Positions 12,774 through 30,397 of a DNA stretch of 64,000 nt are shown here, piece by piece. Under the pieces are notes generated by a model, which was given only the letters and a program-made list of their open reading frames with translations, made no database searches and was not told the DNA's origin. Each line of letters begins with the position of its first letter. Positions within the stretch are counted from its first letter, which is position 1. A program made the translations under genes and the position numbers. The stretch is from Elusimicrobiota bacterium. GTDB lineage: Bacteria > Elusimicrobiota > Elusimicrobia > Elusimicrobiales > UBA9959. Where the stretch lies: positions 831 to 64,830 of the forward strand of contig DMES01000037.1 of NCBI GenBank assembly GCA_003450815.1, written 5' to 3'.

Positions 12774-12786
12774 AATTACCGGGGAA

Positions 12787-12960
12787 GATTACACAGATTA
12801 GGCTACGATTACACAGATTGCAATGAAAACCGCTTAATTTGATAATGTGTATCTCCAAAAGTCAACAAACAAACCCATCTTTAGATTATCAGCTTGAGAT
12901 ATCAGGTTGTTGCTTCAAGTCATATAATCTGTGTAATCGTCGTACTAAATCTGTGTAATC
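12787..12960. repeat. GATTACA hairpin element, copy A, with decayed GxxExxY remnant inside
   Basis: GATTACACAGATT at 12787-12799 and 12807-12819. The inverse AATCTGTGTAATC at 12926-12938 and 12948-12960. The interior keeps a recognisable 3' end of the GxxExxY ORF (AATGAAAACCGCTTAATTTGA..) and a short inverted piece of its 5' end (AGGTTGTTGCTTCAAG). Confidence 0.85.
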
Positions 12961-12963
12961 ATA

Positions 12964-14034
12964 TTACGACTTATCTATCCCCGCGTTTTTCAGGCCTTCT
13001 TCAACCACCACGCCTGCGGCATGGCCGATATCGGAAATGGAGCGGGCCAGCGACTGGCCGGGCTCATCCGTTTGTAAGCCGGAAACTTCAAAGCGCCGCA
13101 TAACCTCGGTTATGCTAAGCGCCAGGCGCATGGCTTTAAGACCTTTTTCGCCGCTTGGCGCCGGGGTTTTAGAGGTCTTAATGCAGTCAATAAAGTGATA
13201 AAGCTCTTCTTTTATGGGCTCTTTTTTCTCTAGTTTCGGGAACAGTATCTCTATGTCCTTCATGGATTTTACCGCCGGGGTTTTCTTGTGATAAATTTTA
13301 AGGCGGGCGCTCACATAATCCACCGATAGATAGGCGTCCTGCTGGTAAATGCGCATGCGGCGGGAATTCTCCATGCTGACGCGGCTGGCGGTGATATCGG
13401 CCACGCAGCCGTTTTTGAATTTAATGCGCACATTTGAGATGTCTTCGTGATTGGATAGTATGCTCGCGCCGATAGCCTCAAAAGTCGCCACTTCGGAATC
13501 TATCATAGTAAGGATGATGTCCAGGTCATGTATCATCAGGTCCAGCGTTACGCCGGTGGCCGCCACGCGCGGGTCGTATGGTCCAAGGCGCTCTATGGTG
13601 ACATAGCGCGGGTTTTTTACATGCTTAAGCGTTTCAACCACGGCTGGATTAAAGCGCTCGGAATGTCCCACCTGGAGCACCACATTGTTTTTTTCTGAGA
13701 GGGCCAGCAGGTTGCGAGCGCCTTCTTCCGAGTTGGCCAGCGGCTTTTCAATCAGCACATGCAGGCCGGCTTCCAAAGCTTTTATGCCTATTTCAGCATG
13801 GAATTCAGTGGGGGCGGCCAAAACCAGTGCGTCCACCTGGCCGAACATGTCAAGATAATCCTTATAGGCCACGCAGTTGTAGCGCCATGCCAGTGTCTGC
13901 GCACGCATGAGGTTGGGGTCGGAAACCCCTATCAGCTCAACTTCCGGCATTTTGGAGAGGGTGCGAGTATGGAAGCCGCCGAGTTTGCCGGCGCCGATCA
14001 CGCCGAAACGCATTTTCTTTTCTTTTTCAGCCAT
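12964..14034 (-). CDS. Gfo/Idh/MocA-family NAD(P)-dependent oxidoreductase
   Basis: 356 aa. N-terminal Rossmann motif MRFGVIGAGKLGG and an EKPLA motif. It sits inside the lipid A gene block. Confidence 0.8.
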   Translation of the reverse strand: MAEKEKKMRFGVIGAGKLGGFHTRTLSKMPEVELIGVSDPNLMRAQTLAWRYNCVAYKDYLDMFGQVDALVLAAPTEFHAEIGIKALEAGLHVLIEKPLANSEEGARNLLALSEKNNVVLQVGHSERFNPAVVETLKHVKNPRYVTIERLGPYDPRVAATGVTLDLMIHDLDIILTMIDSEVATFEAIGASILSNHEDISNVRIKFKNGCVADITASRVSMENSRRMRIYQQDAYLSVDYVSARLKIYHKKTPAVKSMKDIEILFPKLEKKEPIKEELYHFIDCIKTSKTPAPSGEKGLKAMRLALSITEVMRRFEVSGLQTDEPGQSLARSISDIGHAAGVVVEEGLKNAGIDKS

Positions 14035-14271
14035 ATAGTGTCCTCTAAATCAGATAATAAACCACTGCCGGCCCGAGGCCGGTCTTGTATTATCATTCTA
14101 CTAAATGTGCGGGCGATATGTGAGGGGGGAGCTGTGTAAAGCGGCACGATAGCTTAGAGCCCAATGGTGTCAGGCTTTTTGTCTCCAAAAGATACCATGA
14201 CACCAGGTCCTACGCTTTAATTATGTAAAATACCAATATGCCGCGCAATCTGTACTTTTGCAAGAGGATAT

Positions 14272-15483
14272 ATGAATAACAATAACCTGCCGGATGGAAT
14301 GGAAAAAGAAGAAAATTTTGCCGAGATGTTTGAGAATAACTCTATGGAAACGGACCGGTTGGAGCCGGGACAGAAGATCGAGGCCCCTATAGTAAAAATA
14401 ACCGCCGAATGGGCGCTCCTTCAGGTGGGGGGCAAGGGCGAGGGTTACCTGGACAGGAAAGAATTGCAGGATGAAAACGGCAGCCTGACCGTAAAAGAGG
14501 GCGACAAAATCCGCGCTTACTTCATGTTTTCAGAGGACGGCGAAATGCGCTTCACCACAAAAATAGGGTCGGGTCCGGCTGCCTATGTGCAGCTTGAAGA
14601 CGCCTGGAAGAACGGCATTCCCGTGGAAGGAACGGTATCAAAAGAAATGAAAGGCGGCTTTGAAATTACCATCAGCGGCGGAGCGCGCGCTTTCTGCCCC
14701 TTCTCGCAGATGGGCCTGCGGCGTGAGGAGAACAAGGAAAGTTACCTGAGCAGGGTTATGATATTTGAGATCATAGAGTGCGGCGAGCGCAACATTGTGC
14801 TTTCCCGCAAAGGCATACTGGGGCGTGAGAGACAGGCAAAAACGGCGGTTCTTAAAGAAACCCTGAAAGAGGGTGTTAGAATAAAAGGCATTGTGACTTC
14901 CATACAAAAATTCGGCGCTTTTATTGATATAGGCGGCGTGGAAGGCCTGCTGCCGGTTTCAGAGATAGCTTGGAACCGGACGGAAAACGTGAGCGACATC
15001 CTTTCAGTCGGCCAGAAGGTGGAAGTTATAATTAAAAGCCTGGACTGGGCGAATGAGAAAATGTCCTTCAGTCTCAAAGACACACTGCCCGACCCCTGGG
15101 ATCTGGCTGTGCAGAACTGGCCACCGGGTTCATATCACACGGGCACCGTTTCACGGCTTGCCCCTTTCGGCGCTTTTGTCACCCTGGGGGAAGGCGTGGA
15201 CGGACTTATACATATCTCCCGCCTGGGCGGAGAGCGGCGGATACAGCACCCGGATGAAGTATTGAAGGCGGGGGAGTCCATTGAGGTGTGCGTGGAATCG
15301 GTGGACAGGGAAAACAAGAAAATTTCGCTGGTTCCCGCCGATGTCCGCCGCGAAGAGGCGGAAACAGCGGCCACTTTGAAACAATATCAGCAACAGGATC
15401 TCTCGGAGCAGCCGATAATGAGTTCTTTCGGGGATTTGATTGAGCAGCAGTTGCAAAAAAAAGCGAAGACGCCAAGGCAGTAA
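14272..15483 (+). CDS. S1 RNA-binding domain protein (four S1 repeats; ribosomal protein S1-like)
   Basis: 403 aa. Has repeated G.V..(I/V)..FGAF(V/I) S1 signatures. AGAGGA is upstream of the ATG. Confidence 0.75.
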   Translation: MNNNNLPDGMEKEENFAEMFENNSMETDRLEPGQKIEAPIVKITAEWALLQVGGKGEGYLDRKELQDENGSLTVKEGDKIRAYFMFSEDGEMRFTTKIGSGPAAYVQLEDAWKNGIPVEGTVSKEMKGGFEITISGGARAFCPFSQMGLRREENKESYLSRVMIFEIIECGERNIVLSRKGILGRERQAKTAVLKETLKEGVRIKGIVTSIQKFGAFIDIGGVEGLLPVSEIAWNRTENVSDILSVGQKVEVIIKSLDWANEKMSFSLKDTLPDPWDLAVQNWPPGSYHTGTVSRLAPFGAFVTLGEGVDGLIHISRLGGERRIQHPDEVLKAGESIEVCVESVDRENKKISLVPADVRREEAETAATLKQYQQQDLSEQPIMSSFGDLIEQQLQKKAKTPRQ

Positions 15484-15529
15484 AAAAGCTAGAGTTGTAA
15501 AGGAACTCCTTAATACTATCCCCTCTACC

Positions 15530-16180
15530 CTATCCCCTAACCCCTGCACTTAATAGTTCTTCGGCTTCGGCGGTCAGCGCGTTCAGGATATTTTCAAGCT
15601 CAACAGCTTTGGCCGCCACGTCGTCGGTTTCCGTTATGATAAACGGAGCGCCGTAAACAGCCTGGATGCGGCCGAAGGGGAGAGGGAACTGATAGCGGTC
15701 CCAGCTGGGCAGGATCTTTTTTCTTGAAAGGGCGCACGCGGCCGGTATTATAGGCACTCCGGCTTTCCGGGCCAGGTATACCGCGCCTGGCTGCACCTTA
15801 AAAACGGGCCCGCGCGGGCCGTCGGGCGTGATGGCTATTGAGCTGCCGCCGCGCGCGGCTTTTATCAGGCCGCGCAGCGAAATGAAGCCGCCCGAAGTGG
15901 TGGAGCCGCGCACAAAAGTAAATCCAAAGAGCTTTAATATGCGGGCCATATATTCGCCGTCTTTGCTCTTGCTGATCAGGCCGCAGGTGCCGCGGTTCCT
16001 GTGCAGATAGATCATCAATACTTCCTGGCGGTGCCAGAGGGCGTAAATTACCGCGCCGGGATGGTCTTTTACGCCTTTAATTGAAATTTTAGAGGTAAGG
16101 GCTGTCAGTTGTATGTAAAACCAGGCAAGCCATGAAAGCAGGGTGTGGGCGGGGGAGTGTTTGTAAAAAAGTTCGTTCAT
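15530..16180 (-). CDS. DUF374 / lysophospholipid acyltransferase-like protein
   Basis: 216 aa. ALWHRQ.., ITPDGPRGP and GAVYLARKAGVPIIP are typical of the DUF374 family often linked to LPS core genes. Confidence 0.7.
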   Translation of the reverse strand: MNELFYKHSPAHTLLSWLAWFYIQLTALTSKISIKGVKDHPGAVIYALWHRQEVLMIYLHRNRGTCGLISKSKDGEYMARILKLFGFTFVRGSTTSGGFISLRGLIKAARGGSSIAITPDGPRGPVFKVQPGAVYLARKAGVPIIPAACALSRKKILPSWDRYQFPLPFGRIQAVYGAPFIITETDDVAAKAVELENILNALTAEAEELLSAGVRG

Positions 16181-16190
16181 TATTGAAGAA

Positions 16191-16681
16191 GATTACACAG
16201 ATTACTGAAGAAGATTACACGGATTAAACTACGATTAAACAGATTTCGAAAAGTTCCTGTGATAGCAGGAACGGATTATAATGAAAACCGTTTAATTTGA
16301 CAGCTTTTGTTCCCGAAATTAACAAGCAACCCTATCTTTAAATCAGCGGCTTTAAGATACGAAATAATTTGGTGTTTAAAAACCTCTGGGATAAACCCCG
16401 TAACAGCCTTAAGTTCAACAATAATCTCCCCTTCAACTACAAGGTCCAATAAAAAATTCCCCGCTTTTTGACCGCCAAAATTCACGCTAAAACTTTTTTC
16501 ATTCTGATATTTGAGCCCATTATCTTCAAGCGCAATCTGAAGAGCTTTATGATATATCTTTTCGGTAAAACCGGGTCCGAGCGCCGCATGAACCTTGAAG
16601 CAACAACCTATAATCCTACCTGTCAGATCATTGTTAGGAGCCATACAATCTGTGTAATCGTCGTGCTAAATCTGTGTAATC
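16191..16681. mobile_element. GATTACA hairpin element, copy B, carrying an intact GxxExxY gene
   Basis: GATTACACAGATT at 16191-16203, GATTACACGGATT at 16213-16225, and a degenerate GATTAAACAGATT at 16233-16245. The inverse AATCTGTGTAATC at 16647-16659 and 16669-16681. A 7-bp hairpin GTTCCTG-tgatag-CAGGAAC (16253-16272) follows the ORF stop. Confidence 0.7.
16276..16644 (-). CDS. GxxExxY protein (PD-(D/E)XK nuclease-fold family)
   Basis: 122 aa. Has GPGFTEKIYHKAL, LDLVVEGEIIVELKA and the family pattern throughout. Its length is typical. Confidence 0.85.
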   Translation of the reverse strand: MAPNNDLTGRIIGCCFKVHAALGPGFTEKIYHKALQIALEDNGLKYQNEKSFSVNFGGQKAGNFLLDLVVEGEIIVELKAVTGFIPEVFKHQIISYLKAADLKIGLLVNFGNKSCQIKRFSL

Positions 16682-17540
16682 AATCTGCCTCAAAAGACTG
16701 TTCGCTTGCGGCGCCGAAAACGGTTATACCTGTCTCTTTGGCGGCGGCCAGAAAGTCTTCCATGCCGAGTATCAGTGTTTTTCCGGCTTCAAGCACCAGA
16801 GTGTCCGCGCCGGCGGCTTTCATGTTATGCAGCGTGGGCGCGCCGGCAACCGGCAGGTCGAAGCGCATATCCTGGTCCGGGCGGGCCACTTTCACCACCA
16901 TCATGGCCTGGCCTTTGTGCCCCTGATTACGCAGACGGAGAAGAATTTCCCCCGCCCGTTTTATGCAGGCGTCCGTGCCTTCCTGGGCTTCTGCCGCCAC
17001 CACAATGTGGTCGCGCAGAACCACGGTGAGGCCTATATCCAGGGCGGCAAGGGTCTTTGCGGCTTTCCAGCCGAACGCGGCGCATTTAAGGCTGTCTGCG
17101 GAAAGTTTTTTGCCGGCCAGCAGGCCAGGTTTCATAAGCAGGTGTTCGAGCATTGTGGCGGAGTTTACAAGCTGTATGCCGTCGGAGGCCAGCTCTTCCG
17201 CTATTGCGCCAAGGATGGCGTTGGCTTTCTTATCTTTGAGTTTGAAAAGCAGCTTGGCGGCGCGCACATCGGGCAGGAGGCCTCCGAAAATAGACAGATG
17301 CGGGACCGAGCCCGCCATAAGAATTTTTTTTACGCCGTGGTTTTTCAGGAATTCAATGGGTCCGCTTACCTGGCCCAGCCGGAAATAGGCGGTTTCCTCA
17401 GCATAATTTTCTATCTCTTTCGGTGTAATGCCCTTAAGGCCGATGACAAATAACTTGCGCCCGGCTTTTTTAGCCTCGGCAGCGAACAGCAGGGGAAAAG
17501 AGCCTCCGCCGGATATCAGTCCTATTTTGTCGTCAGTCAT
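16680..17540 (-). CDS. lpxI: UDP-2,3-diacylglucosamine diphosphatase LpxI (DUF1009)
   Basis: 286 aa. Has IGLISGGGSFP.. and ..EAQEGTDACIKRAG. It lies between lpxA and lpxB as in LpxI-type clusters. No LpxH is present in the window. Confidence 0.8.
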   Translation of the reverse strand: MTDDKIGLISGGGSFPLLFAAEAKKAGRKLFVIGLKGITPKEIENYAEETAYFRLGQVSGPIEFLKNHGVKKILMAGSVPHLSIFGGLLPDVRAAKLLFKLKDKKANAILGAIAEELASDGIQLVNSATMLEHLLMKPGLLAGKKLSADSLKCAAFGWKAAKTLAALDIGLTVVLRDHIVVAAEAQEGTDACIKRAGEILLRLRNQGHKGQAMMVVKVARPDQDMRFDLPVAGAPTLHNMKAAGADTLVLEAGKTLILGMEDFLAAAKETGITVFGAASEQSFEAD

Positions 17541-18360
17541 TTGAGGTTTCGGTCAGTTCTTTTAAATTCCGGCGCGGCCGCGCTATGCCGCGTTTCGAAC
17601 CTTCGCAGAAATCAAGTATAAGCGCGGCTTCAGGCGGAAGTTTTTCTCCGCGCAGCCGGGCTAAGGCGTCTTTGAGCGGCAGGCCTTCAAAAAACAGCGT
17701 TTTAAAAACATGCTTTATAATTTTTATGTTTTCGCGGGAGATGCCGTTGCGCCTCATTCCGACAAGATTCAAGCCCACGGGTTTGGCCCGGTCGCCCTGG
17801 GCGATAACGTAGGGGATTATGTCCTGGTTGGCCATGGCTCCGCCGGAGAGCATGGCGAAATTGCCTATGCGGGTGAACTGATGTATGCCTACAAGTCCCG
17901 AGAGCAGGGCGCGGTCGCCTATATGCACATGCCCGGCGGCTGCGGCGGAATTCACCATTATTATGTTGTTTCCCAGTCGGCAGTCGTGGCCTATGTGGGA
18001 ATTTGCCATTAGCATGCAGCCCGATCCCATAGAGGTGAGATTTGTGGCATGCGAGCCGCGGTGCAGTGAAACACCCTCACGGATTATATTTGAGTCGCCC
18101 ATGGTGAAGCGGGTGTGCTCGCCGTGGTAAGAGTAGTCCTGAGGGGGCATTCCTATGTAGGCCGCGCCGGTAAACTGGTTGTTTTTGCCGATGGTGGAAA
18201 ATTCTATTATGCAGTGCGGGCCCACATAGGTGCCGGAGCCTATCTGGGTGTCTTCGCCAATTACGGTAAAGGGCCCTATTTCCACATTGTTGTCTATCAG
18301 AGCTTTGGGGTGTATAACCGCTGTGGTGTGTATTTTGGTAGCCATGCCATCCTCATTCAA
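17533..18360 (-). CDS. lpxA: acyl-ACP--UDP-N-acetylglucosamine O-acyltransferase
   Basis: 275 aa. Has left-handed beta-helix hexapeptide repeats and a C-terminal helical domain (..GLNLVGMRRNG..). The start may be the Met at 18345. Confidence 0.9.
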   Translation of the reverse strand: MNEDGMATKIHTTAVIHPKALIDNNVEIGPFTVIGEDTQIGSGTYVGPHCIIEFSTIGKNNQFTGAAYIGMPPQDYSYHGEHTRFTMGDSNIIREGVSLHRGSHATNLTSMGSGCMLMANSHIGHDCRLGNNIIMVNSAAAAGHVHIGDRALLSGLVGIHQFTRIGNFAMLSGGAMANQDIIPYVIAQGDRAKPVGLNLVGMRRNGISRENIKIIKHVFKTLFFEGLPLKDALARLRGEKLPPEAALILDFCEGSKRGIARPRRNLKELTETSND

Positions 18361-18387
18361 AATTCAAGATTTCGGATTCAAGATTCT

Positions 18388-18849
18388 CTAAGCCAGCGCG
18401 AAGGTCAGATCCGCCTCGGCCGCGAGTTCGTTTTCAACAAAGGCCCGGCCTCGCGCCTTGCCGACCTTTCCTTTTAACCGCAGTATTTCCACATAAAATT
18501 TAAGCACTTCCCCCGGTATCACCTGCCTGCGGAATTTGGCCGATCTTATGCCCGCAAGGTATGCAAAACGGTTCTTTGTTTCCGGCAGGTGCATCATCAT
18601 GGCGGCTCCGGTCTGGGCTATGCCCTCAATAATCAATACTCCCGGCATTATGGGTTTTTGCGGGAAATGGCCATGGAAATAAAGTTCGTTGGCGGTAACG
18701 CATTTTATGCCCACGCAGCTTTTGTTTTCTTCTATAATTTCCACCCTGTCCACCAGCAGAAAGGGATAGCGGTGCGGTATTATTTTTAAAATTTCCTCGC
18801 AGAGAATAATTCTGACTGGTTTGTGTACCGGCGGCTTGGTTTCGTTCAT
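18388..18849 (-). CDS. fabZ: 3-hydroxyacyl-ACP dehydratase FabZ
   Basis: 153 aa. Has HRYPFLLVD and FHGHFPQKPIMPGVLIIEGIAQ. Confidence 0.95.
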   Translation of the reverse strand: MNETKPPVHKPVRIILCEEILKIIPHRYPFLLVDRVEIIEENKSCVGIKCVTANELYFHGHFPQKPIMPGVLIIEGIAQTGAAMMMHLPETKNRFAYLAGIRSAKFRRQVIPGEVLKFYVEILRLKGKVGKARGRAFVENELAAEADLTFALA

Positions 18850-18878
18850 AGTCGGATTCCTGATCCCAGATTCAATAT

Positions 18879-19730
18879 TTAAGATTTAGAATAATTTTCA
18901 ATCGTTTCTCCTGATAATAGTTTAGCAAAATTAATATTACCCGCGTGTCCTGGGCGTTCGGCTTCAATGATAAGGTCTTCGAAAAACAGGCCTGTCAGCG
19001 CCAAATCTCCGATAAGGTCCAGCAGTTTGTGCCGGGCGAATTCGTCGGCGAAGCGCAGACCGTTCTTTGCCAGGATCTCTGTTTCGTCTATTAATACGGC
19101 ATTTTCAAGCGAACCGCCTTTTGCGAGTCCCGCCGCTTTCAGGGCTTTTAGTTCATGGCTGAAGGCAAAGGTTCGCGCCGGTGCTATTTCCCTGAGGTAT
19201 GCTTCTGGTGAAAGGCTAAACTCCACCGCCTGCCTGCCCACCAGCGGGTGCGGGTAGTCATAAACCAGCCTGAAGACCGCTTCGGAAGCTGCGGGCGCCG
19301 CGCGGTACCTGGTTTCGCCTTTTGAAAATTCCACCGGTTTGGTAAGGCGCCCGGCAGAGCGCTCAGAGCCGGGTTTTTCCGTGAGGCCGGCTTCCAGCAG
19401 GGCTTCGGCGAACGGCAGGGCCGAGCCGTCCATAGCCGGCGGCTCCTCTCCCGAGATCTCAATATCCAGATCATCCACGCCAAGCCCGGCGGCCGCCGAA
19501 AGCAAATGCTCAATGGTGTAGAGAGTGTTTTTACCGTCGCCTATATTGGTGCCGCGCGCTGTGCCGCATACATTTTCAGTCAGAGCCGGCATGGGGCCGT
19601 GGAAAAGGGGACTTATAAAGCGTATGCCTGATGAGCCGGGGGCGGGCAGAAAGGTGACCCGTGAAGGAGTTCCCCTGTGCAGGCCTATCCCTTCAAGAGC
19701 TATCGATTTTTTTATTGTTTTCCGGAACAT
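18879..19730 (-). CDS. lpxC: UDP-3-O-acyl-N-acetylglucosamine deacetylase
   Basis: MFRKTIKKSIALEGIGLHRG.. is a typical LpxC N-terminus. The track's GTG start at 19748 lies inside the GATTACA repeat, so ATG 19730 is preferred. Confidence 0.9.
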   Translation of the reverse strand: MFRKTIKKSIALEGIGLHRGTPSRVTFLPAPGSSGIRFISPLFHGPMPALTENVCGTARGTNIGDGKNTLYTIEHLLSAAAGLGVDDLDIEISGEEPPAMDGSALPFAEALLEAGLTEKPGSERSAGRLTKPVEFSKGETRYRAAPAASEAVFRLVYDYPHPLVGRQAVEFSLSPEAYLREIAPARTFAFSHELKALKAAGLAKGGSLENAVLIDETEILAKNGLRFADEFARHKLLDLIGDLALTGLFFEDLIIEAERPGHAGNINFAKLLSGETIENYSKS

Positions 19731-19740
19731 ATTTGAAGAA

Positions 19741-19899
19741 GATTGCACAGATTAAACCAGGATTACACGGATTTTTGTAGTCGCAAAGCTTGCTTTGCCT
19801 CTTCGGCGGTGACGGGCAGTGTCGTCGGCCTGTTCCGCCTATGTTTCTGTCCGTGAGTGATCTGTTAATCTGTGTAATCGCGGTCTAATCTGTGTAATC
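19741..19899. repeat. GATTACA hairpin element, copy C (non-coding insert)
   Basis: GATTGCACAGATT at 19741-19753 and GATTACACGGATT at 19761-19773. The inverse AATCTGTGTAATC at 19867-19879 and 19887-19899. The interior contains a P3 word, GTAGTCGCAAAGCTTGCTTTGCC (19777-19799). Confidence 0.85.
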
Positions 19900-19908
19900 A
19901 CTCAATCA

Positions 19909-20940
19909 CTAAATTCCCAGATGCTTTTTTATTTTGCGGATGGTGGTGTGCATTTCCGGAAGTTTTGAAAGCAGGACCTCTATTCTCATAGCCTGTATGC
20001 GGGGTCTTGCCATATGCCCAAAAACTATCTGGTTTGGGCCTAAATCCGAGATAACGCCCGTTTTGCCCATTACCACCGTATTGTCGCCTATAGTTATGTG
20101 GTCTGAGATCGCTACCTGACCGGCGAGAATAACGCTGTTGCCGATTACGGCTGAGCCGGCTATGCCGACCTGCCCCATAATAAGACAGTTTTTGCCCATG
20201 CGCACATTGTGCGCGATGTGCACGAGGTTGTCTATTTTGGTCCCGTCTCCTATGACGGTGGCTTCAAGTGCCGCCCGGTCTATGGCGGTGTTGGCGCCTA
20301 TTTCCACATCCGAACCTATAATTACCCTGCCTATCTGGGGGATTTTTTTATGAAGCCCTCCGTCGGGTGTGTAGCCGTATCCGTCTGAGCCCGCCACGGC
20401 GCCGGCGTGCAATATTGAGCGCTCGCCTACTTCGCAGTTGTCAAGCACTTTTACGCCGGGGTAAAGACGGGCGTTGGAGCCTATTTTGGCCCCGGCGCCC
20501 ACAAAGCATTGTGCGTCAACATAAGCTCCGTCGCCTATAACGGCGCTGTCTTCGATAATGGATAAGGGGCCTATATAAACGTCTTTTCCAAGCCGCGCTG
20601 TTATGGAGATAACAGCGGAAGGGTGGCAAACACGCGCTTTAAGCGGACGCAGTTCCTTCTCGAGAGCCGCAAGCGCGAGGCTGAAAGCCAGCCTGGGATT
20701 TTTAACCAGCACCAGCGTTCCCTTGAAATCCTTGAGCGCTTCCGCCGCCATTGGGCTTGCCAGCAGGCAGCCTGAGTTTGAGCGTCCGGCTGCCCCGGCA
20801 TATTTGGCGTCCGCCAGGAAACTGAGGTCTTTCGGCCCGGCTTTTTCAAGCGGTGCGGCGCCCGTTATTTCTACATTTTTGCCGGCGCCGCGCAGCTCAC
20901 CGCCGGTCAGTTTCGCCACGGCTTCGGACGTCAGCTTCAT
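19909..20940 (-). CDS. lpxD: UDP-3-O-acylglucosamine N-acyltransferase
   Basis: 343 aa. Has an N-terminal LpxD domain (..LSFLADAKY..) followed by hexapeptide repeats. Confidence 0.9.
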   Translation of the reverse strand: MKLTSEAVAKLTGGELRGAGKNVEITGAAPLEKAGPKDLSFLADAKYAGAAGRSNSGCLLASPMAAEALKDFKGTLVLVKNPRLAFSLALAALEKELRPLKARVCHPSAVISITARLGKDVYIGPLSIIEDSAVIGDGAYVDAQCFVGAGAKIGSNARLYPGVKVLDNCEVGERSILHAGAVAGSDGYGYTPDGGLHKKIPQIGRVIIGSDVEIGANTAIDRAALEATVIGDGTKIDNLVHIAHNVRMGKNCLIMGQVGIAGSAVIGNSVILAGQVAISDHITIGDNTVVMGKTGVISDLGPNQIVFGHMARPRIQAMRIEVLLSKLPEMHTTIRKIKKHLGI

Positions 20941-21986
20941 ATCGGGCTTTCCTCAAGTTTTTTAACAAGTTTGTCCGTAAGGTCAACTGCGGAATGACCG
21001 AAAAGGATGGTGCGCTTGTCCACTACCACGCTCACTCCCTCTTTCACGGCAAGTTCTTTAAGGACCAGGTAGATCCGGCCGAGTATTATTTCGCTTTTAT
21101 TGTTTTCAAATTCCAGGAGTTCCCGCTCGGTCTGGTGCTGGGACAGGCGCAGTCCTTCTTCTTTCTTTGCGAGTTCCGTTTCTTTGAGCACTATCGCGGA
21201 ATCAATTTCCGCGGCTGAGGTTGAAATGGAAAATTTGAAGTAATCCATCGGCACACGGCTTATGCCGGGCATATCTATGCCGGTCATTCCCGGCAGGCCT
21301 GGCGGAGGGACCACCAAAGCAGGCAGAGGTGAAGGGGGGGGAGAGGTTAAGGTGGAGGAAGAGGCTGCGGCTGCTTTACCTATACCTGCTGTTTCCCCGG
21401 CGGTGTTCGTGACTACGGCCGGAATTGTTTGGGTTGAAAGTTGTACCGCGGCGGTAGACATTGAGACTCCGCTGTTCGCCGGCCCGGTTTTGCCGGGCGC
21501 TTCAGGTCCCGAAGCCGGCGGCAGGGGGACTACGGCCGGTTGCGGACCATTTGGGGTGTCAGTGGTTGGAAAATTTGACTGCGCTTCCCCGGGTGAAAGC
21601 TGTACCGGGACGATTTGGGTGGAAATTTGCGGGATTGGAATCTCGGCGGCTTTAGCCGCGGCGGCTGATATCTCTTCAGCCTGGCGCATGAGGCCGGGCA
21701 AAGTAAGGGCGAATTCACGCTCCTGTTTTAGTTTCGCTATATCGGCTTTCAGAGAAAAAATGGCCTGTTTTTTAATGTTCAGGGCGTCTTCTTTCTTTTT
21801 TATTCTGTCTAAAAACTCCTCCCTGGCGTTGGAAGTGCCGGAAAAATTCTTGAAAACACGGTCTATGTCCACATAGCCTATGGTGCCGGACTCGCCCTTG
21901 TTTTCTTCAAGTGAAAGTTCAAGCGCCAAAGCGCGTGATGCCGTAAAAAAAGCTAAAGCGGATAAAAAAAGCGTCAGTTTTTTCAT
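20937..21986 (-). CDS. skp: OmpH/Skp-family periplasmic chaperone with a long Pro/Ala/Thr-rich insertion
   Basis: Signal peptide MKKLTLFLSALAFFTASRALA. OmpH-like coiled segments lie at both ends (IGYVDIDRVF.., ..VVVDKRTILFG). About 150 aa of low complexity lies between them. GAGGG is upstream of ATG 21986. Confidence 0.7.
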   Translation of the reverse strand: MKKLTLFLSALAFFTASRALALELSLEENKGESGTIGYVDIDRVFKNFSGTSNAREEFLDRIKKKEDALNIKKQAIFSLKADIAKLKQEREFALTLPGLMRQAEEISAAAAKAAEIPIPQISTQIVPVQLSPGEAQSNFPTTDTPNGPQPAVVPLPPASGPEAPGKTGPANSGVSMSTAAVQLSTQTIPAVVTNTAGETAGIGKAAAASSSTLTSPPPSPLPALVVPPPGLPGMTGIDMPGISRVPMDYFKFSISTSAAEIDSAIVLKETELAKKEEGLRLSQHQTERELLEFENNKSEIILGRIYLVLKELAVKEGVSVVVDKRTILFGHSAVDLTDKLVKKLEESPI

Positions 21987-21997
21987 GTCAACCCTCA

Positions 21998-22022
21998 TCC
22001 GAAAATTGCTGCAATTTTCGGA
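21998..22022. repeat. palindromic hairpin TCCGAAAATTGC-t-GCAATTTTCGGA (family P2, copy 2)
   Basis: Sits between the bamA stop and the skp start. Its arms are identical to those of the copy at 9704-9731. Confidence 0.8.
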
Positions 22023-24512
22023 TTAGAACAAATTCCCGAGCGTGAAATAAATATCCGAACGCTGCTCTCCGGGCTTATGGTTGAAGCCGTAACCCCAGTC
22101 AAGCCGTATTGGGAAGGCAGGCGTGGTGAAACGGATGCCGAAACCCGCTCCGGCTTTCAGGTTGTTCTGGCTTGTGCCGCTGCGCAGGTTTATGTTGTTG
22201 AAGTGGTCCCAGGAATTGCCCAGATCAAAGAAGAAGGCCCATTGTACTATGGTGCGCTTGCGTTCCCTGGCTATCGGGATCTTGAGCTCTATGTTCAGTA
22301 TGTCGTAAACCTTGCCGCCGTTTTGAGGCCCGATCTGGCCGTTATTGGCGTATCCCCTGATGGTGTCGGCGCCGCCGATGAAATAACGCTCATAAACAGG
22401 CACGCTTTTGGTGGAGCCGAAACGCGCCGCGTAACCCAGACGGTTTGAGATTGCCAGCACAAATGGATAATCTTCTATGGAGAAAAGCTTGAGATTATAA
22501 CTGGCGGTAAGGCTCGGTTTATAATAATCCGCATCCCCCATAAGAGGTCCGCCGGTAAAATCAAGTCCCAGCGCTATGCGCGAACCGCGGGTGGGATCCC
22601 ACACGCTATCCCTGGTATCGCGCGCGAATTCCAGGTAAATGGAGGAAGTGACGCTGGTGCCCTCCAGCAGTTCGCCGGTATAGAGCGGATCTACCGCCGA
22701 AATCCTTACTTTTTCATAGGTATAGGAGGTGGTAAGGGTATATTTGTCGTTCTGAAATCTGGGGGCGAGCGTTACCTTGCCTCCGGCGCGCTGCTCGGTA
22801 TAGGCGGAAAGAGAGGTTTTGTAAGGTTTATAGCGGCGGGTGTTGTAAACATCCACACCAAGGGTAGTGGGATGTGTTCCCATCCAGGGGGTGGACCAGC
22901 TTAGGGTATAATCGTTCACCTTTTTACCGAAGTTCCACGACAGGGAGGTTTTGTAGGCCCGTCCGAAAAGGTTCAGGTGCGACAGCGCGACCGTTCCCAC
23001 CAGCCCGTCCACGGAGGAGATTCCCATGCCGGCGGTAAGCATGCCGGGTTTGCCCTCGGCAACATCAAAAACCAGGTCCACTTTATCCGGGTCGGAGGTG
23101 GGGTTTATTACGGGGCTCACATCGTCTATGAAACCCAGGTTGAAGATCCTTTCCTGGCTGCGCCGTATTTTTGTGGAACTGAAAACTTCGCCCTCTTTTT
23201 GCGTTATTTCGCGCCGTAGCACATAGGTTTTGGTGGCCTTGTTGCCCTCAACGTCTATGTGGTCCACATAGATCGGTTTGTTTTCGGTAATGACAAATTC
23301 AATGTCCAGCGCGCCTGTTTTTTCATTGGGCACTTTCACGGGCTTTATCTGGGCCTTCAGGTAGCCTTTGTCGGCATATTTGTCCTGGATTCCGCGCAGG
23401 GTGTCGTCGAAGCGTTCCTGGTTGAAAAGCTTGCCTTCGCGATATTCCACGGCCGTGGAGAGGTCTTTTGAAAGATAAACGGTGTTGCCAGAAAAATAGG
23501 TGCGGCCGAAGCTTTGCAGCAGGCCCTCGGCAATGTCTATGTGTATAAAAACCCGGCTCCGGTCCTCGTTGAATGAAACTGAAGACGAAGTTATGCTGAA
23601 GTTGCTGTAGCCGTTGTTTTTGTAGAAGGTCTCCAGAACTTTCAGATCGGCGTCAATATCCTGCGGGGAGTAGATCTTTTTAGGGCGGTTTTTCAGTTTC
23701 TTCAGCAGTTTGTTGGTTTTAAATGCTTTGGCTCCTTCAAGCTTCACCTCGGCTACCCTGGCCTTTTTACCCTCGGCTACCGACACCGTAAGGAAGCAGA
23801 GGCGAGCGGCCGTGTCATAGCGGATTTCGTAATCGGTTGTGGCGTCTATGAAGCCTTTTTCATGGTATTTATCGGTTATTTTTATGAGGTCTTCCCTGAT
23901 TTTTAGTTCGTCAAAAAAATCCTTTTCTTTCAGGGACATCTCGTCTTTAACGGAGGTTTTTGAAAGTTCTTTATTGCCTTTCAGCGCTATTTCCTTTATC
24001 ATCGGTTTTTCCGAAACAATATAAGTGATGCGCGCGGTAATGCTTGACGCCGACAGGGCGCTGAACTTGGCCGCCGAGGGCTTGTCGGGAAGTTCCGCGA
24101 TATCCACTGAAACGGTATCCATGCTGCCAAGGCCTAAAATCGCCTCTATGTCCAGGTTGACATAGTCCGGGTAGTAAAGCGCGCCTTTTTTAGCCTTGCC
24201 GGTTTTAAGCACGACTTTTGGTTTCACATTAACCGTGCCTTTCACGGCGGTTTCATACACTTCCCAGGGGCCCCTGGCCTTTTCAAGCGCCGGCTCCGAC
24301 ATGCCCGGCAGGGCGGAGGGGGCAACCGCGGTAACTGTGGATATTTCAGCAGGCGCCGGGGAGGAGGGCGTGGGAGCCGGCTGGGTGGCGGAAGAGGGGG
24401 ATTCTGCGGTGTCGGTGGAAACCGCGCTTGCGGCCGGAACCGGCGCGCCCTGGGCCGCTGAGAAGGAAGCGGAAGCGAAAGGTAAAAGAAGGAGCAGTAA
24501 ATATTTTTTCAT
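22023..24512 (-). CDS. bamA: outer membrane protein assembly factor BamA
   Basis: 829 aa. Signal peptide, POTRA-like repeats, and a C-terminal Omp85 barrel ending ..IYFTLGNLF. It is followed by skp-lpxD in the canonical order. Confidence 0.9.
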   Translation of the reverse strand: MKKYLLLLLLPFASASFSAAQGAPVPAASAVSTDTAESPSSATQPAPTPSSPAPAEISTVTAVAPSALPGMSEPALEKARGPWEVYETAVKGTVNVKPKVVLKTGKAKKGALYYPDYVNLDIEAILGLGSMDTVSVDIAELPDKPSAAKFSALSASSITARITYIVSEKPMIKEIALKGNKELSKTSVKDEMSLKEKDFFDELKIREDLIKITDKYHEKGFIDATTDYEIRYDTAARLCFLTVSVAEGKKARVAEVKLEGAKAFKTNKLLKKLKNRPKKIYSPQDIDADLKVLETFYKNNGYSNFSITSSSVSFNEDRSRVFIHIDIAEGLLQSFGRTYFSGNTVYLSKDLSTAVEYREGKLFNQERFDDTLRGIQDKYADKGYLKAQIKPVKVPNEKTGALDIEFVITENKPIYVDHIDVEGNKATKTYVLRREITQKEGEVFSSTKIRRSQERIFNLGFIDDVSPVINPTSDPDKVDLVFDVAEGKPGMLTAGMGISSVDGLVGTVALSHLNLFGRAYKTSLSWNFGKKVNDYTLSWSTPWMGTHPTTLGVDVYNTRRYKPYKTSLSAYTEQRAGGKVTLAPRFQNDKYTLTTSYTYEKVRISAVDPLYTGELLEGTSVTSSIYLEFARDTRDSVWDPTRGSRIALGLDFTGGPLMGDADYYKPSLTASYNLKLFSIEDYPFVLAISNRLGYAARFGSTKSVPVYERYFIGGADTIRGYANNGQIGPQNGGKVYDILNIELKIPIARERKRTIVQWAFFFDLGNSWDHFNNINLRSGTSQNNLKAGAGFGIRFTTPAFPIRLDWGYGFNHKPGEQRSDIYFTLGNLF

Positions 24513-24651
24513 TTTAATCGGACCGCACGAAAACTTCAGACTTATCCTTTGGGCCGCATTTCATCTAAACACGCGGTCTCAAATTCCTGACTATAACAGC
24601 ACATATAATACAAATTTTGGTCGCAGTTTTGGAAAACCGCTTTCTAACACT

Positions 24652-24680
24652 TTGCGAGCGAACGACAAATAGACTATAAT
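24652..24680 (+). promoter_or_regulatory. sigma70-type promoter candidate for the PIN-PhoH gene
   Basis: TTGCGA (24652-24657), a 17-nt spacer, then a perfect TATAAT (24675-24680), ~45 nt upstream of ATG 24725. Confidence 0.5.
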
Positions 24681-24724
24681 CTCATTGTTCAATGCAAAGG
24701 CCGGTGGAAAATGGAAGGTTCACA

Positions 24725-26026
24725 ATGAAAAAGATCTATATTCTGGACACAAACGTGCTCATTCACGATCCGCTTTCTTTTACCAAATTCGACGACAACA
24801 CCGTTGTAATACCTATTTCTGTTCTGCAGGAGCTGGATACTTTCAAAACCGCCGGCGACGAGCGCGGAAAGAGCGCCCGCGTGATCTCGCGCCGCCTTGA
24901 TGAGTACCGGGTTAAGGGCAAGCTTAATGTCGGAGTTAAACTTGAAAACGGCGGAACGCTGAAAATTGAGCTTGATCATCAGCAGGTGCTGCCGCCGGAG
25001 TTTAGGCTAACGGAGATGGATGACCGCATTCTTAACAGCGCTTTCTGGCTGGCCAAAGAAAAAAATAATGTGGTGCTGGTCACCAAAGATATTAATCTGC
25101 GCCTGAAATCAGATGCCGTGGGCATTAAGGCTGAGGATTACAAGGCGGGCAAGGTAAAGGTGGACGAGTTGTACCCGGGGTTGGAGTTCAGGGATGTTGG
25201 TTCCGCCGTCATAGATAAATTTTATAAAGACAAATCCGTAAAAAACGAAGCGGCGGACCTGGTGCCTAATGAATTCGTCATTTTCAGGGCCAAGGAAGAC
25301 CCGAAAAAAACGGCCATAGGCCGCTGCGACCCCGCGGACGCCTCGGTAATAAGGGCGCTTAGCCCGGAACCGTCACCCTGGGGTATCAGGCCCCTGAACA
25401 AAGAACAGCGCTGCGCCATGGAACTTTTGCTCGACGATAATGTAAAGCTGGTAACCCTTATCGGCACGGCGGGCACGGGTAAAACGCTTATATCGCTGGC
25501 CTGCGGTCTGCAGAAAGCCGTTGACGACAATATTTACAAGCGGCTGATCATATGCCGTTCAGTGGTGCCCGTGGGACGCGACATCGGTTTCCTGCCCGGC
25601 ACCAAGGAAGAGAAACTTTCCACCTGGATGGGCGCCATTTACGATAACCTTGAGATAATAATGGACAAGCGCCACCAGGAGGACTCCCTGCAGAAGTTCG
25701 AATACCTCCTGCAGAACGAGAAGATCGAAATAGCTTCCGTCAGCCATATCCGCGGCCGTTCGCTGCCAAAACAATATATGCTGGTGGACGACGCGCAGAA
25801 CCTGAGCCCGCACGAAATTAAAACCATACTGAGCCGCGCGGGCGAGGGCACCAAGGTGGTGGTGACAGGCGATCCCTATCAGATCGACAACCCCTACCTG
25901 GATATCGCCTCTAACGGACTTACCTATATAGTGGACCGCATGAAAGGCCAGAAGCTTTACGGCCATCTGACCTTCACCAAAACCGAGCGCAGCCAGCTGG
26001 CGTCACTGGTGGCGGAGCTGTTGTAA
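24725..26026 (+). CDS. PhoH-family ATPase with N-terminal PIN domain (YlaK-like)
   Basis: MKKIYILDTNVLIHDP (PIN), Walker A GTAGTGKT, and DDAQN / TGDPYQID. GGAAGG is upstream of ATG 24725. The track's 24692 start has no RBS. Confidence 0.85.
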   Translation: MKKIYILDTNVLIHDPLSFTKFDDNTVVIPISVLQELDTFKTAGDERGKSARVISRRLDEYRVKGKLNVGVKLENGGTLKIELDHQQVLPPEFRLTEMDDRILNSAFWLAKEKNNVVLVTKDINLRLKSDAVGIKAEDYKAGKVKVDELYPGLEFRDVGSAVIDKFYKDKSVKNEAADLVPNEFVIFRAKEDPKKTAIGRCDPADASVIRALSPEPSPWGIRPLNKEQRCAMELLLDDNVKLVTLIGTAGTGKTLISLACGLQKAVDDNIYKRLIICRSVVPVGRDIGFLPGTKEEKLSTWMGAIYDNLEIIMDKRHQEDSLQKFEYLLQNEKIEIASVSHIRGRSLPKQYMLVDDAQNLSPHEIKTILSRAGEGTKVVVTGDPYQIDNPYLDIASNGLTYIVDRMKGQKLYGHLTFTKTERSQLASLVAELL

Positions 26027-26031
26027 ACATG

Positions 26032-26056
26032 GGCTGCTGAAAAAAATCAGCAGCCT
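26032..26056 (+). terminator. hairpin GGCTGCTGA-a7-TCAGCAGCC after the phoH-like gene
   Basis: 9-bp perfect stem 6 nt after the stop. The U-tract is weak (TTGTG). Confidence 0.45.
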
Positions 26057-26059
26057 TGT

Positions 26060-26142
26060 GATTACACGGATTAGCAACAGCGATTACACAGATTATTTTG
26101 TATGAGAAAATCAGTGTAATCTTTTCAGGAATCTGTGTAATC
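26060..26142. repeat. GATTACA hairpin element, copy D (minimal, empty form)
   Basis: GATTACACGGATT at 26060-26072 and GATTACACAGATT at 26082-26094. A 14-nt loop follows, then AATCAGTGTAATC at 26109-26121 and AATCTGTGTAATC at 26130-26142. Confidence 0.85.
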
Positions 26143-26149
26143 CATTTTC

Positions 26150-26971
26150 TTATGGGAACGGGCAATATACCAGGCGGTCAACGCGCAGCTTCTTAAGTTC
26201 TTTTTCCGAAGAATAAAACTTATCGGGAAATTCAATAAACATTGTGTTCCCCCGTATCAGCAGTTTTTCCTTTATCCAGGGGTGGGTTACTTCGAACGCG
26301 CAGGCGCGGCATTCGCGGTCGCAGTCTATGCTGCGCACGGAATTGTCGGGCGCTATGTAGGGCATTCCAACCATGCATGTGCGGGTGGTGGTCAGGTTCA
26401 GGTAGGGATAGTAAAGCGTAAGGCTGAATTTTTTCGGGTTAAACCCATAGGCTCTGTCTCTGAAGTTGGTGCGGGGTCTGATGCCTATGGTTGAAAGTTC
26501 ATAGCGGTTTATACCGATTTTTGTGAAAAAGTCCAGCGCCAGCCGGTTGAGGACTCTGAGCTGGGTCCTTTTCAGCACGAAAATATTGTCGTAAAGCTGC
26601 CGCCCGATGTTTATCTTAAACGGCAGGTTTTCCCTCTCGGCCAGTTCAAGCGCGCCGAAGTCGTTGACGGTGATTTCAAGGTTGTTAATATCCAGTCGCC
26701 CCGCGCTGCGCAGTTTAATAAGTTTTTTGAAGACGGCGGTCAGACGCTTCAGTCCCTTTTCGCTTAAAAGCGGTGTTAGAAGGCAGACTTTTTTGCCTTT
26801 TTCCTGAAAGCGGACGATTTCCGAAACTACCGCGTTTTCCAGCAGATTTTCGCAAAATTCAGGCCCCAGATAAACCCAGTCAAAACGCTCCAGCAGATCT
26901 TTAAGCCTGCCGGAATTCTCCAGCTTGGAAAAGGAGAGGCTGCCCAGCCTTATGCCGTGTTCAATGCTCAT
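26150..26971 (-). CDS. U32-like partner protein (UbiV-like position), Cys cluster
   Basis: About 273 aa from ATG 26971. YLGPEFCENLL, ITVNDFGALELA and the Cys cluster TRTCMVG..CDRECRAC are paralogous to 41583..42278. It starts 2 nt after the upstream U32 stop. Confidence 0.6.
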   Translation of the reverse strand: MSIEHGIRLGSLSFSKLENSGRLKDLLERFDWVYLGPEFCENLLENAVVSEIVRFQEKGKKVCLLTPLLSEKGLKRLTAVFKKLIKLRSAGRLDINNLEITVNDFGALELAERENLPFKINIGRQLYDNIFVLKRTQLRVLNRLALDFFTKIGINRYELSTIGIRPRTNFRDRAYGFNPKKFSLTLYYPYLNLTTTRTCMVGMPYIAPDNSVRSIDCDRECRACAFEVTHPWIKEKLLIRGNTMFIEFPDKFYSSEKELKKLRVDRLVYCPFP

Positions 26972-26973
26972 AA

Positions 26974-30261: not shown

Positions 30262-30397
30262 GTAAATATTCGGTGACCTTGTGTATCTTACACTGACCCT
30301 TGTTCGGTGTGTAGTGGCAGAGCTTGCTCTGCCAGCGGAAGAGGCAAAGCAAGCTTTGCCACTACAAGGGCAAATGACGGGTTCACCGAATATTTAC
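30262..30397. repeat. nested long palindrome (family P3)
   Basis: Outer arms are GTAAATATTCGGTGACC and GGGTTCACCGAATATTTAC. Inner arms are GTAGTGGCAGAGCTTGCTCTGCC (30311-30333) and GGCAAAGCAAGCTTTGCCACTAC (30343-30365). Each inner arm is itself a hairpin. Confidence 0.8.

Follow-up and report, generated by a model that had tools for sequence, protein, structure and literature searches.

GATTACA-word elements in intergenic gaps of an Elusimicrobiota genome and the predicted nuclease gene that one of them encloses

Four loci with a common plan

The 64,000-nt stretch of an Elusimicrobiota genome analysed here (assembly GCA_003450815.1, contig DMES01000037.1, positions 831 to 64,830), called the window throughout, carries four loci, A to D, that are built on one plan: two or three direct copies of a 13-nt word, GATTACACNGATT (the GATTACA word), then an interior, then two inverted copies of the word. 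The interior of locus B holds an intact gene for a 122-amino-acid protein of the GxxExxY family (TIGR04256/PF13366), a predicted nuclease. The words and this gene form one unit, the type of word tracks the subfamily of the protein, and the hairpin at locus B is an insertion between two host genes. The word is non-palindromic and has no GTAG/CGTC tetranucleotide head. At ≤1 mismatch, GATTACACAGATT occurs 17 times in the window, every copy lying inside one of the four loci; at ≤2 mismatches it occurs 20 times, compared with 0.70 ± 0.80 times in the shuffled window, and none of 100 shuffles reached 20, which rules out a chance origin of the copies.

The minus-strand genes of this region are lpxB, a Gfo/Idh/MocA oxidoreductase gene, DUF374, lpxI, lpxA, fabZ, lpxC, lpxD, ompH and bamA, and phoH2 and an S1-domain gene lie on the plus strand. 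A is located in the gap between the oxidoreductase gene and lpxB, B between lpxI and DUF374, and C between lpxD and lpxC, 9 nt from the lpxD stop codon. An earlier sequence-only reading of this DNA had put all four loci in gaps of lipid A and outer-membrane operons, which is correct for these three but not for D, which is located where the 3' ends of phoH2 and an unnamed open reading frame (ORF) converge, 7 nt from the stop codon of the latter. Its description of the four as one family with the above architecture was borne out (A has 2 + 2 words and a 106-nt interior, B 3 + 2 words and 401 nt, while the interiors of C and D measure 93 and 14 nt), as was the remark that the outer word in A and B lies at the upstream stop codon, at a distance of 3 nt in A and with an overlap of 2 nt with the lpxI stop in B. 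The positions of all features are given in Table 1. Together the loci occupy 13.4 kb of the window (12787-26142; rough P ~0.04 under uniform placement), and this clustering may reflect local hopping or a tolerance of the region.

Table 1. Positions in the window of elements A to D, their parts and a second palindromic family
Feature	Position	Strand	Remarks
Element A, arm, two direct words	12787..12819 (words 12787-12799, 12807-12819)		exact matches
Element A interior, 106 nt, decayed GxxExxY	12820..12925	-	tblastn and exact matches to B
Element A, arm, two inverted words	12926..12960 (12926-12938, 12948-12960)		ends 3 nt from oxidoreductase stop
Element B, arm, three words (16191, 16213, 16233)	16191..16245		gene's 3' side; 10 nt from DUF374 start codon
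Element B small hairpin GTTCCTG-N6-CAGGAAC	16253..16272	-	between GxxExxY stop and inner 3' word; read from sequence
Element B GxxExxY/PF13366 gene, intact, 122 aa	16276..16644	-	co-oriented with lpx genes; TIGR04256 and PF13366 matches
Element B, arm, two words	16647..16681		gene's 5' side; inner word 2 nt from ATG; outer word gives lpxI TGA
Element C, 2 + 2 words, 93-nt non-coding interior	19741..19899		between lpxD and lpxC
Element D, minimal form, 2 + 2 words, 14-nt loop	26060..26142		convergent phoH2 / unnamed ORF gap
Second palindromic family, full hairpin, not a GATTACA element	30310..30366		half-copy nested in C

Sequence of the GxxExxY gene is present in A and B only and was found in neither C nor D. 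B contains the complete gene together with a small hairpin of its own, both of which had been recognised before; the small hairpin is followed by TTTT, and a hairpin like it is found directly after the lpxI stop codon of a relative (L121 6246-6271), in another position relative to the words. A and B have arm spacers as well as gene sequence in common, the spacer of A reading gtagcct on the gene strand and resembling gtagttt of B. The proposal that A still aligns to both ends of the gene stands in part. The ATG (12921-12923) is kept 2 nt from the inner word, the same spacing as in B, and the last 27 codons are kept as well (12901..12821; 48% identity over 27 amino acids by tblastn, with a 21-nt match to 16280-16300 of B). 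The N-terminal fragment, in contrast, is inverted with respect to the C-terminal remnant, and its core (12904-12919) matches 16594-16609 exactly over 16 nt in the opposite orientation. The inversion covers about 15 N-terminal codons (12875-12925) and suggests template switching or inversion during deletion.

The interior of C is non-coding and contains, as had been noticed, a word of another repeat family (24 nt, 19776-19799), a second palindromic family with the sequence TGTAGTSGCARAGCTTGCTYTGCC and one full hairpin elsewhere in the window. The annotated GTG start of lpxC (19748) reaches into C, and the gene probably begins at another codon, the ATG of 19729-19731. Directly before D, a terminator-like hairpin (GCTGCTGAaaaaaaTCAGCAGC, 26033-26055) follows phoH2.

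The words and the GxxExxY gene as one unit

The B protein matches TIGR04256 (GxxExxY) with an E-value of 3e-37 and 127.4 bits (cut-off 35) and PF13366 (PDDEXK_3) with an E-value of 2e-35 and 122 bits (cut-off 22), whereas a search of the PDB by sequence gave no match. The GxxExxY motif reads G25-F-T-E28-K-I-Y31, with G25, E28 and Y31 invariant in 31 homologues, and the nuclease-type residues E28, D67, E77-x-K79 and Q92 are invariant in the same set. An AlphaFold2 (AF2) model of the protein (pLDDT 86.9) predicts helices (H) and strands (E) in the order H28-41, E46-56, E59-70, E74-79, H87-100 and E104-110, with D67 in beta-2 and E77-L-K79 in beta-3, and fits the alpha-beta-beta-beta-alpha-beta core of PD-(D/E)XK proteins with its D…(D/E)xK motif. 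The best Foldseek match of the model in the PDB is Cas4 (4ic1, E 7e-5), followed by MGME1, lambda exonuclease, AddB and Hjc, and I-Bth0305I is among the weak fold matches. The model is in keeping with the PD-(D/E)XK fold that had been stated for GxxExxY proteins, here with its catalytic residues intact. Compared with the orthologue in the relative L119, the nonsynonymous to synonymous divergence (dN/dS) of the gene is 0.048/0.42 = 0.11, and the gene is therefore maintained by purifying selection. From its sequence and its model the protein looks functional and is a predicted nuclease. An HUH/Y1 transposase was sought in the enclosed gene with no match, PF13366 being the sole enclosed gene. The PF13366/GxxExxY family comprises ~20,000 clusters at 50% identity, and it is entered in a survey of the PD-(D/E)XK superfamily as "Unknown … multiple transfers" (PMC3424549). 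Many proteins of 250-280 amino acids (e.g. P0244, P0246, P0248) are made of two GxxExxY domains in tandem, which is a hint that the working unit is a dimer.

The link between gene and word was assessed without bias in homologues picked by protein similarity alone, which come from independent assemblies and are 58-68% identical to the window protein. Words flank the gene in seven of these seven homologues (L129, L130, L131, L133, L138, L154 and L155, degenerate in the last), among whose sources Omnitrophota, WOR-3, Nitrospirae and Deltaproteobacteria are named, and the arrangement of a gene within a hairpin, which the sequence-only reading knew from B, is thus general. In L130, L131 and L133 the start codon, ATG or GTG, directly adjoins the inner 5' word, and in L154 this word overlaps the ATG; the TAA stop codon overlaps the inner 3' word in L130 and L133. 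Six further cases of a gene within words were found among the matches listed in the word scan described below, and the gene has the same orientation as the gene upstream of it in 18 of 19 cases. A TATAAT/TATAAA box, which could be an outward-facing -10 element, stands a few nt past the outer 3' word of three filled elements that are unrelated to one another (L130 3400-3420, L131 3440-3455, L133 3400-3415). Besides, gene callers read through the words, by which spurious N-terminal (ITQI, DYTD) or C-terminal (SPIPLSP) extensions were added to GxxExxY proteins in the databases (P0021, P0030, P0050, P0057, P0110, P0120; L153 1501-1935).

Other subfamilies of the protein are enclosed by other words. 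All four members of a second subfamily (L059 type), which shares 44% identity with the window protein, carry GGRGATA/TATCTCC arrays; these members derive from Nitrospinae, Spirochaetota, Planctomycetota and Armatimonadota. More distant members, some of them from cultured organisms, carry CACAGAGA (Bernardetia), CACACGGATTCG (Treponema) or CGCGGAT (Gemmatirosa), and paralogues carry CACGGAA (in L155) or CACTCAAAT (in L105). The repeats around one GxxExxY gene on a Fusobacteria plasmid are direct, not inverted.

A scan for the word itself, in which one genome per species was searched for two words 5-12 nt apart, returned at least 116 loci in Omnitrophota, Elusimicrobiota, Deltaproteobacteria, Planctomycetota, Nitrospirota, Clostridia, Bacteroidota and others. 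Among the matches listed, to which all counts in this paragraph refer, 79 elements with the same architecture were left after 9-nt microsatellite-like arrays had been set aside. Their interior lengths peak at ~15 nt, with a tail at 60-200 nt and a further grouping at 364-416 nt; the interiors of that long class are GxxExxY genes or pseudogenes, and several mid-sized interiors hold C-terminal gene remnants adjoining an arm. About 80% of the 79 elements, all in other genomes, are gene-less. Of 66 elements for which both neighbours could be identified, 53 lie between co-directional genes, and the median distance from the upstream stop codon is ~10 nt.

Including A, remnants of the gene were recognised in seven mid-sized elements (A, L022, L031, L033, L080, L092 and L105). 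One gene-sized interior (L011, 396 nt) shows neither similarity to GxxExxY nor a convincing ORF. A phage vector was also considered and rejected, as only 7 word-pair matches occur in 2.9 million viral contigs, with the gene in none. The word is furthermore found in 9-nt phased arrays, (GATTACACA)n, and in other repeated arrangements (L033 1550-1771, L080 1275-1502, L068 748-778, L108 2212-5774 and L093 2110-2332); the 9-nt arrays flank GxxExxY remnants in Desulfosporosinus. In L108, units of ~105 nt, each like an empty hairpin, are arranged in tandem over 3.5 kb, and L093 has eight direct words in four repeats of a 44-nt unit.

Hairpins without a gene are copied as units. L021 contains a pair of empty copies at a distance of 2 kb from each other that share 90% identity across 118 nt, a stretch that takes in the spacers, the loop and a nested GC hairpin, and their flanks are unrelated.

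What is conserved in the arms is the sequence of the word. Position 9 is variable and is the same between paired arms in 59% of pairs (54% expected), about one quarter of arm pairs cannot pair at this position on either strand, the spacers and outer flanks are not complementary, and no covariation is seen. The words are spaced 19-23 nt from start to start, with a mode of 22. These mismatches, the non-complementary spacers and the phased spacing mean that the word is kept as a sequence in helical phase and not as a helix, which points to a sequence-specific reader.

Insertion at orthologous sites and a proposed mechanism

Orthologous gaps were compared in 11 metagenome contigs that encode LpxI at 69-87% identity, and empty, filled and element-free states were encountered at the lpxI|DUF374 junction. 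In L122, L123, L124, L127 and L128 the stop and start codons are 0-9 nt apart or overlap, and there is no element. In L125 the junction holds a GATTACA hairpin that is empty, sits precisely where the element of the window does and agrees with it in arm spacer (tagcacgRc) and junction, and L119 has the filled form, with a GxxExxY protein 91% identical to that of the window and an LpxI 83% identical. An element with a variant word is present at this junction in L121 and a different palindrome in L118. Because five relatives have no element and others have it in empty or filled form, the hairpin at lpxI|DUF374 is an insertion. It has changed the end of the host gene: LpxI ends in SF-x-x-D-stop with the element and in SF-x-stop in its absence, two codons having been added to lpxI and the TGA being supplied by the outer word (window 16680-16690; L119 1120-1135; L125 1853-1866). 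D is likewise missing at its orthologous site in L118.

At the sites of A and C, the relatives have either nothing or word-array palindromes of like design built from other words (GTCACAAGT, AGAGTTAAG, GAGGGT). Palindromes of this kind in lpx gaps include L118 14077-14290, 7480-7550 and 10855-10960, L125 3946-4055, L121 6245-6385 and L128 5390-5480, with the words GTCACAAGT, AGAGTTAAG, GAGGGT and GATTACAGCGATT, and the word family at one lpx gap varies among related genomes.

The sequence-only reading had arranged the four loci as a cycle in which an empty hairpin is invaded by the gene, which then decays. Decay is seen in the remnants of the mid-sized elements. A passive, pre-existing empty target, in contrast, is not supported, because the hairpin itself was inserted and is absent from five relatives, because empty hairpins copy as units, and because the ORF is fused to the words, its start abutting and its stop overlapping them, with spacers shared between A and B. 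These observations favour the alternative that had been offered along with the cycle, in which arms and cargo form one mobile unit; invasion of empty copies by the gene is possible.

With moderate confidence, we propose that A to D are copies of a family resembling both miniature inverted-repeat transposable elements (MITEs) and REPINs (hairpin-forming pairs of repetitive extragenic palindromic, REP, sequences), the full-length form of which encodes a nuclease whose presumed word builds the ends. Each end is an array of one to three copies, in rare cases more, of GATTACACNGATT about two helical turns apart, with the two ends mutually inverted. B would represent the full-length and presumably autonomous form, [word-word]-ATG…GxxExxY…stop-[word'-word'], of ~440-490 bp, in which the ORF extends from one inner word to the other and would be expressed through transcription of the host operon. 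A would be a copy with an internal deletion and rearrangement, C a copy with foreign or non-coding filler, and D the minimal MITE-like form, which is copied as a unit too. We infer that the GxxExxY protein binds or cuts the words and drives mobility: it would recognise its cognate words and in doing so probably bridge both inverted arrays as a dimer or a larger oligomer, and its breaks might let the unit copy or move with no target-site duplication, host repair or replication finishing the event. Short forms may be mobilised in trans, as REPINs presumably are by REP-associated tyrosine transposases (RAYTs), and as a side effect the arrays would form a long-range stem in the polycistronic RNA of the host.

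Several points weigh against this proposal. Direct repeats in the flanks, as expected of a target-site duplication, were no commoner in 47 elements than in re-paired controls, and neither a target motif nor an outward extension of the palindrome rose above control. The loops of short empty elements resemble the end of the gene only weakly (mean local score against its last codons 8.65, compared with 7.73 after shuffling; 4 of 52 elements individually notable), too weakly to be called remnants of it. Synonymous divergence (dS) between the window and L119 is 0.42 for the element gene and 0.63 for lpxI, a difference that is not significant, and site B is compatible with a long history of vertical descent and needs no recent movement. 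Conservation of the word in the scan-derived set is partly a matter of ascertainment, because these loci were found with the word. In L154, at 0.8 kb from the GATTACA element, a gene of a different family, PF05635 (23S_rRNA_IVP, a four-helix bundle), is enclosed by an inverted word array of its own (AATTTCTAAATCCTAATTTCTAATAAA|ATG … TAG…TTTATTAGAAATTAGACATTAGGATTTAG; L154 5198-5578); the architecture therefore needs no nuclease, and the ORF could be cargo. Moreover, PD-(D/E)XK enzymes hydrolyse DNA, strand transfer by them is not known to us, and we know of no element with a PD-(D/E)XK protein as its sole enzyme.

The PF05635 case leads to a different account, which we regard as unlikely, namely that the word-array hairpin is what moves or propagates itself, by means of the host or of an enzyme that is not linked to it, and that GxxExxY is a small selfish or accessory cargo like the PF05635 ORFs, persisting through the stem and through expression by operon read-through, with word co-variation resulting from long co-inheritance alone. 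It would agree with the ratio of empty to filled elements, ~10:1 among the matches listed, and with the word-array palindromes in the same operon gaps of related genomes, which have no gene in view. A precedent is the intervening sequence in the 23S rRNA of Coxiella, a 428-nt selfish element with a decaying ORF whose mobility enzyme is not known (PMC4990558). Against this account, GxxExxY is the only gene that is consistently linked, the protein is under strong purifying selection with its nuclease motif invariant, and the near-exact persistence of a 13-nt word across phyla, next to proteins that share no more than 58-68% identity, requires a sequence-specific reader carried along with the element.

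It is quite unlikely, in our estimate, that the elements are explained by homing, in which GxxExxY would cut an empty hairpin within the loop or close to it, repair from a filled copy through word-array homology would install the gene, and decay would in time make the site empty again. PD-(D/E)XK homing endonucleases do exist (I-Ssp6803I), the empty (L125) and filled (window, L119) forms occupy one orthologous site with the same arm spacers, and the gene occupies precisely the space between the inner words. In addition, arm and spacer are identical between the window and L119 despite a diverged lpxI flank, which a co-conversion tract could explain. However, the hairpins themselves were inserted and spread without the gene, so homing alone cannot explain the family, and the homology arms are only ~35 nt long. 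Deletion of the gene gives the same pattern and is seen directly in A and in seven further loci. The LpxI neighbour-joining tree, which is shallow, with synonymous sites near saturation, places the window beside the element-free L124 and is compatible with gain as well as loss of the gene among L125, the window and L119.

That the arrays are kept for a neutral or useful role as a transcript stem (RNase III processing, stability or translational coupling) we consider very improbable: the tight operon gaps between mostly co-directional genes, the stable predicted folds of D (z-scores of -4.7 and -5.9 for its two strands), the predicted long-range RNA stem that closes around the ORF of B, the persistence of the site-B element over a dS of ~0.4-0.6 and the cleavage of stem-enclosed intervening sequences by RNase III (PMC4990558) speak for it, but the pairing is not conserved and does not covary, which makes an RNA hairpin by itself an insufficient explanation, the same word stands in unrelated gene contexts of many phyla, the element is missing from the junction in close relatives, and a scan of 12000-27000 against Rfam 15 (E ≤ 1) returned nothing relevant (the one match on an element, bglG-cis-reg, scored 31.8 bits, against a gathering threshold of 80).

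Returning to the proposal of a mobile unit with its own nuclease, there is a substantial chance that it represents a new class of mobile element, and no description of the word or of the gene-repeat association was found in the searchable literature (words, GxxExxY, PF13366, PDDEXK + repeats). Going further, we tentatively suggest that GxxExxY/PF13366 proteins may be the sequence-specific nucleases of unrecognised, minimal autonomous elements that cross phyla and have no DDE, HUH, serine or tyrosine recombinase. Their subfamilies would have co-evolved each with its own end-arrayed word, and they would be the parent of the word hairpins in operon gaps of many, mostly uncultivated lineages, Elusimicrobiota, Omnitrophota and Nitrospirota among them. 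The PF05635 ORFs of rRNA intervening sequences would represent a sister form of this way of life, in which a stem encloses an ORF. A large family described as unknown would thereby acquire a proposed role as nuclease partner of a specific DNA word. If this is true, many palindromic repeats in genomes of uncultivated phyla would be given an origin, and mobility like that of REPIN/RAYT, with no target duplication, would exist on a different enzyme fold. The elements also rewrite the ends of host genes, as in LpxI with its two additional residues and element-derived stop codon, and mislead gene callers, as in the ITQI extensions and the false GTG start of lpxC. A mini-nuclease of 122 amino acids with a predicted specificity of 13 bp could in addition be a useful reagent.

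Comparison with known systems

MITEs are known from bacterial operons, e.g. the Correia/NEMIS elements of Neisseria. Like them, the present elements measure 80-500 bp, have terminal inverted repeats, are multicopy, intergenic and co-transcribed, and include forms internally deleted from a longer coding element, the terminal repeats of A, C and D being common to the coding B. They differ in that neither TA nor another target duplication is present, the ends are word arrays, and the parent is of PD-(D/E)XK type and not a DDE transposase. Homing endonuclease genes, whether free-standing or borne by introns and including PD-(D/E)XK types (I-Ssp6803I, I-Bth0305I), are likewise small selfish nuclease genes with a cycle of gain and decay, and gene-containing and gene-less alleles occur here at one site (window and L119 versus L125). 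However, the present elements involve neither an intron nor an intein, their 'site' is a mobile repeat at many loci, and the gene is fused to the words.

At the ends of foldback (FB) transposons (e.g. Galileo, PMC2775673) and of Tn7 and Mu, arrays of short repeats are read as multiple protein-binding sites. TnsA of Tn7 even has the PD-(D/E)XK fold, but joining needs TnsB. The ends of the present elements resemble these, being arrays of short direct repeats that are inverted between the two ends, whereas foldback elements are eukaryotic, all of these transposons are far larger, and their mobility depends on DDE-type transposases.

The ORF-bearing intervening sequences in 23S rRNA (Coxiella, Leptospira; S23p/PF05635) are selfish insertions of ~430 nt in a transcribed unit, with a small decay-prone ORF within an inverted-repeat stem and a history of horizontal gain followed by vertical inheritance (PMC4990558), and in these respects B is similar to them. 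In contrast, A to D lie between protein-coding genes and not in an rRNA helix, the ORF here is a predicted nuclease under purifying selection, and the stem is a conserved word array with unpaired spacers.

With the REPIN/RAYT system the present family has in common that inverted pairs of a short repeat form intergenic hairpins, many copies of which are gene-less (PMC3116915, PMC3337134, PMC3733652), that the enzyme gene is flanked by its cognate inverted repeats, that lineages of the enzyme go with differing repeats, and that target-site duplications are lacking. In the present family a 122-amino-acid protein of predicted PD-(D/E)XK nuclease type takes the place of the HUH/Y1 (IS200/IS605-like) transposase of RAYTs, and the repeat is a 13-mer that is not palindromic and stands in phased tandem arrays, whereas REP sequences are imperfect palindromes of 20-40 nt with a GTAG/CGTC head (PMC3733652). 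In addition, many phyla have the word in common, and the gene family occurs in multiple copies with horizontal mixing, whereas RAYTs are single-copy and vertically inherited. The element thus lacks defining features of REP/RAYT, of target-duplicating MITEs and of rRNA intervening sequences, and in the way it works it is most like REPIN/RAYT.

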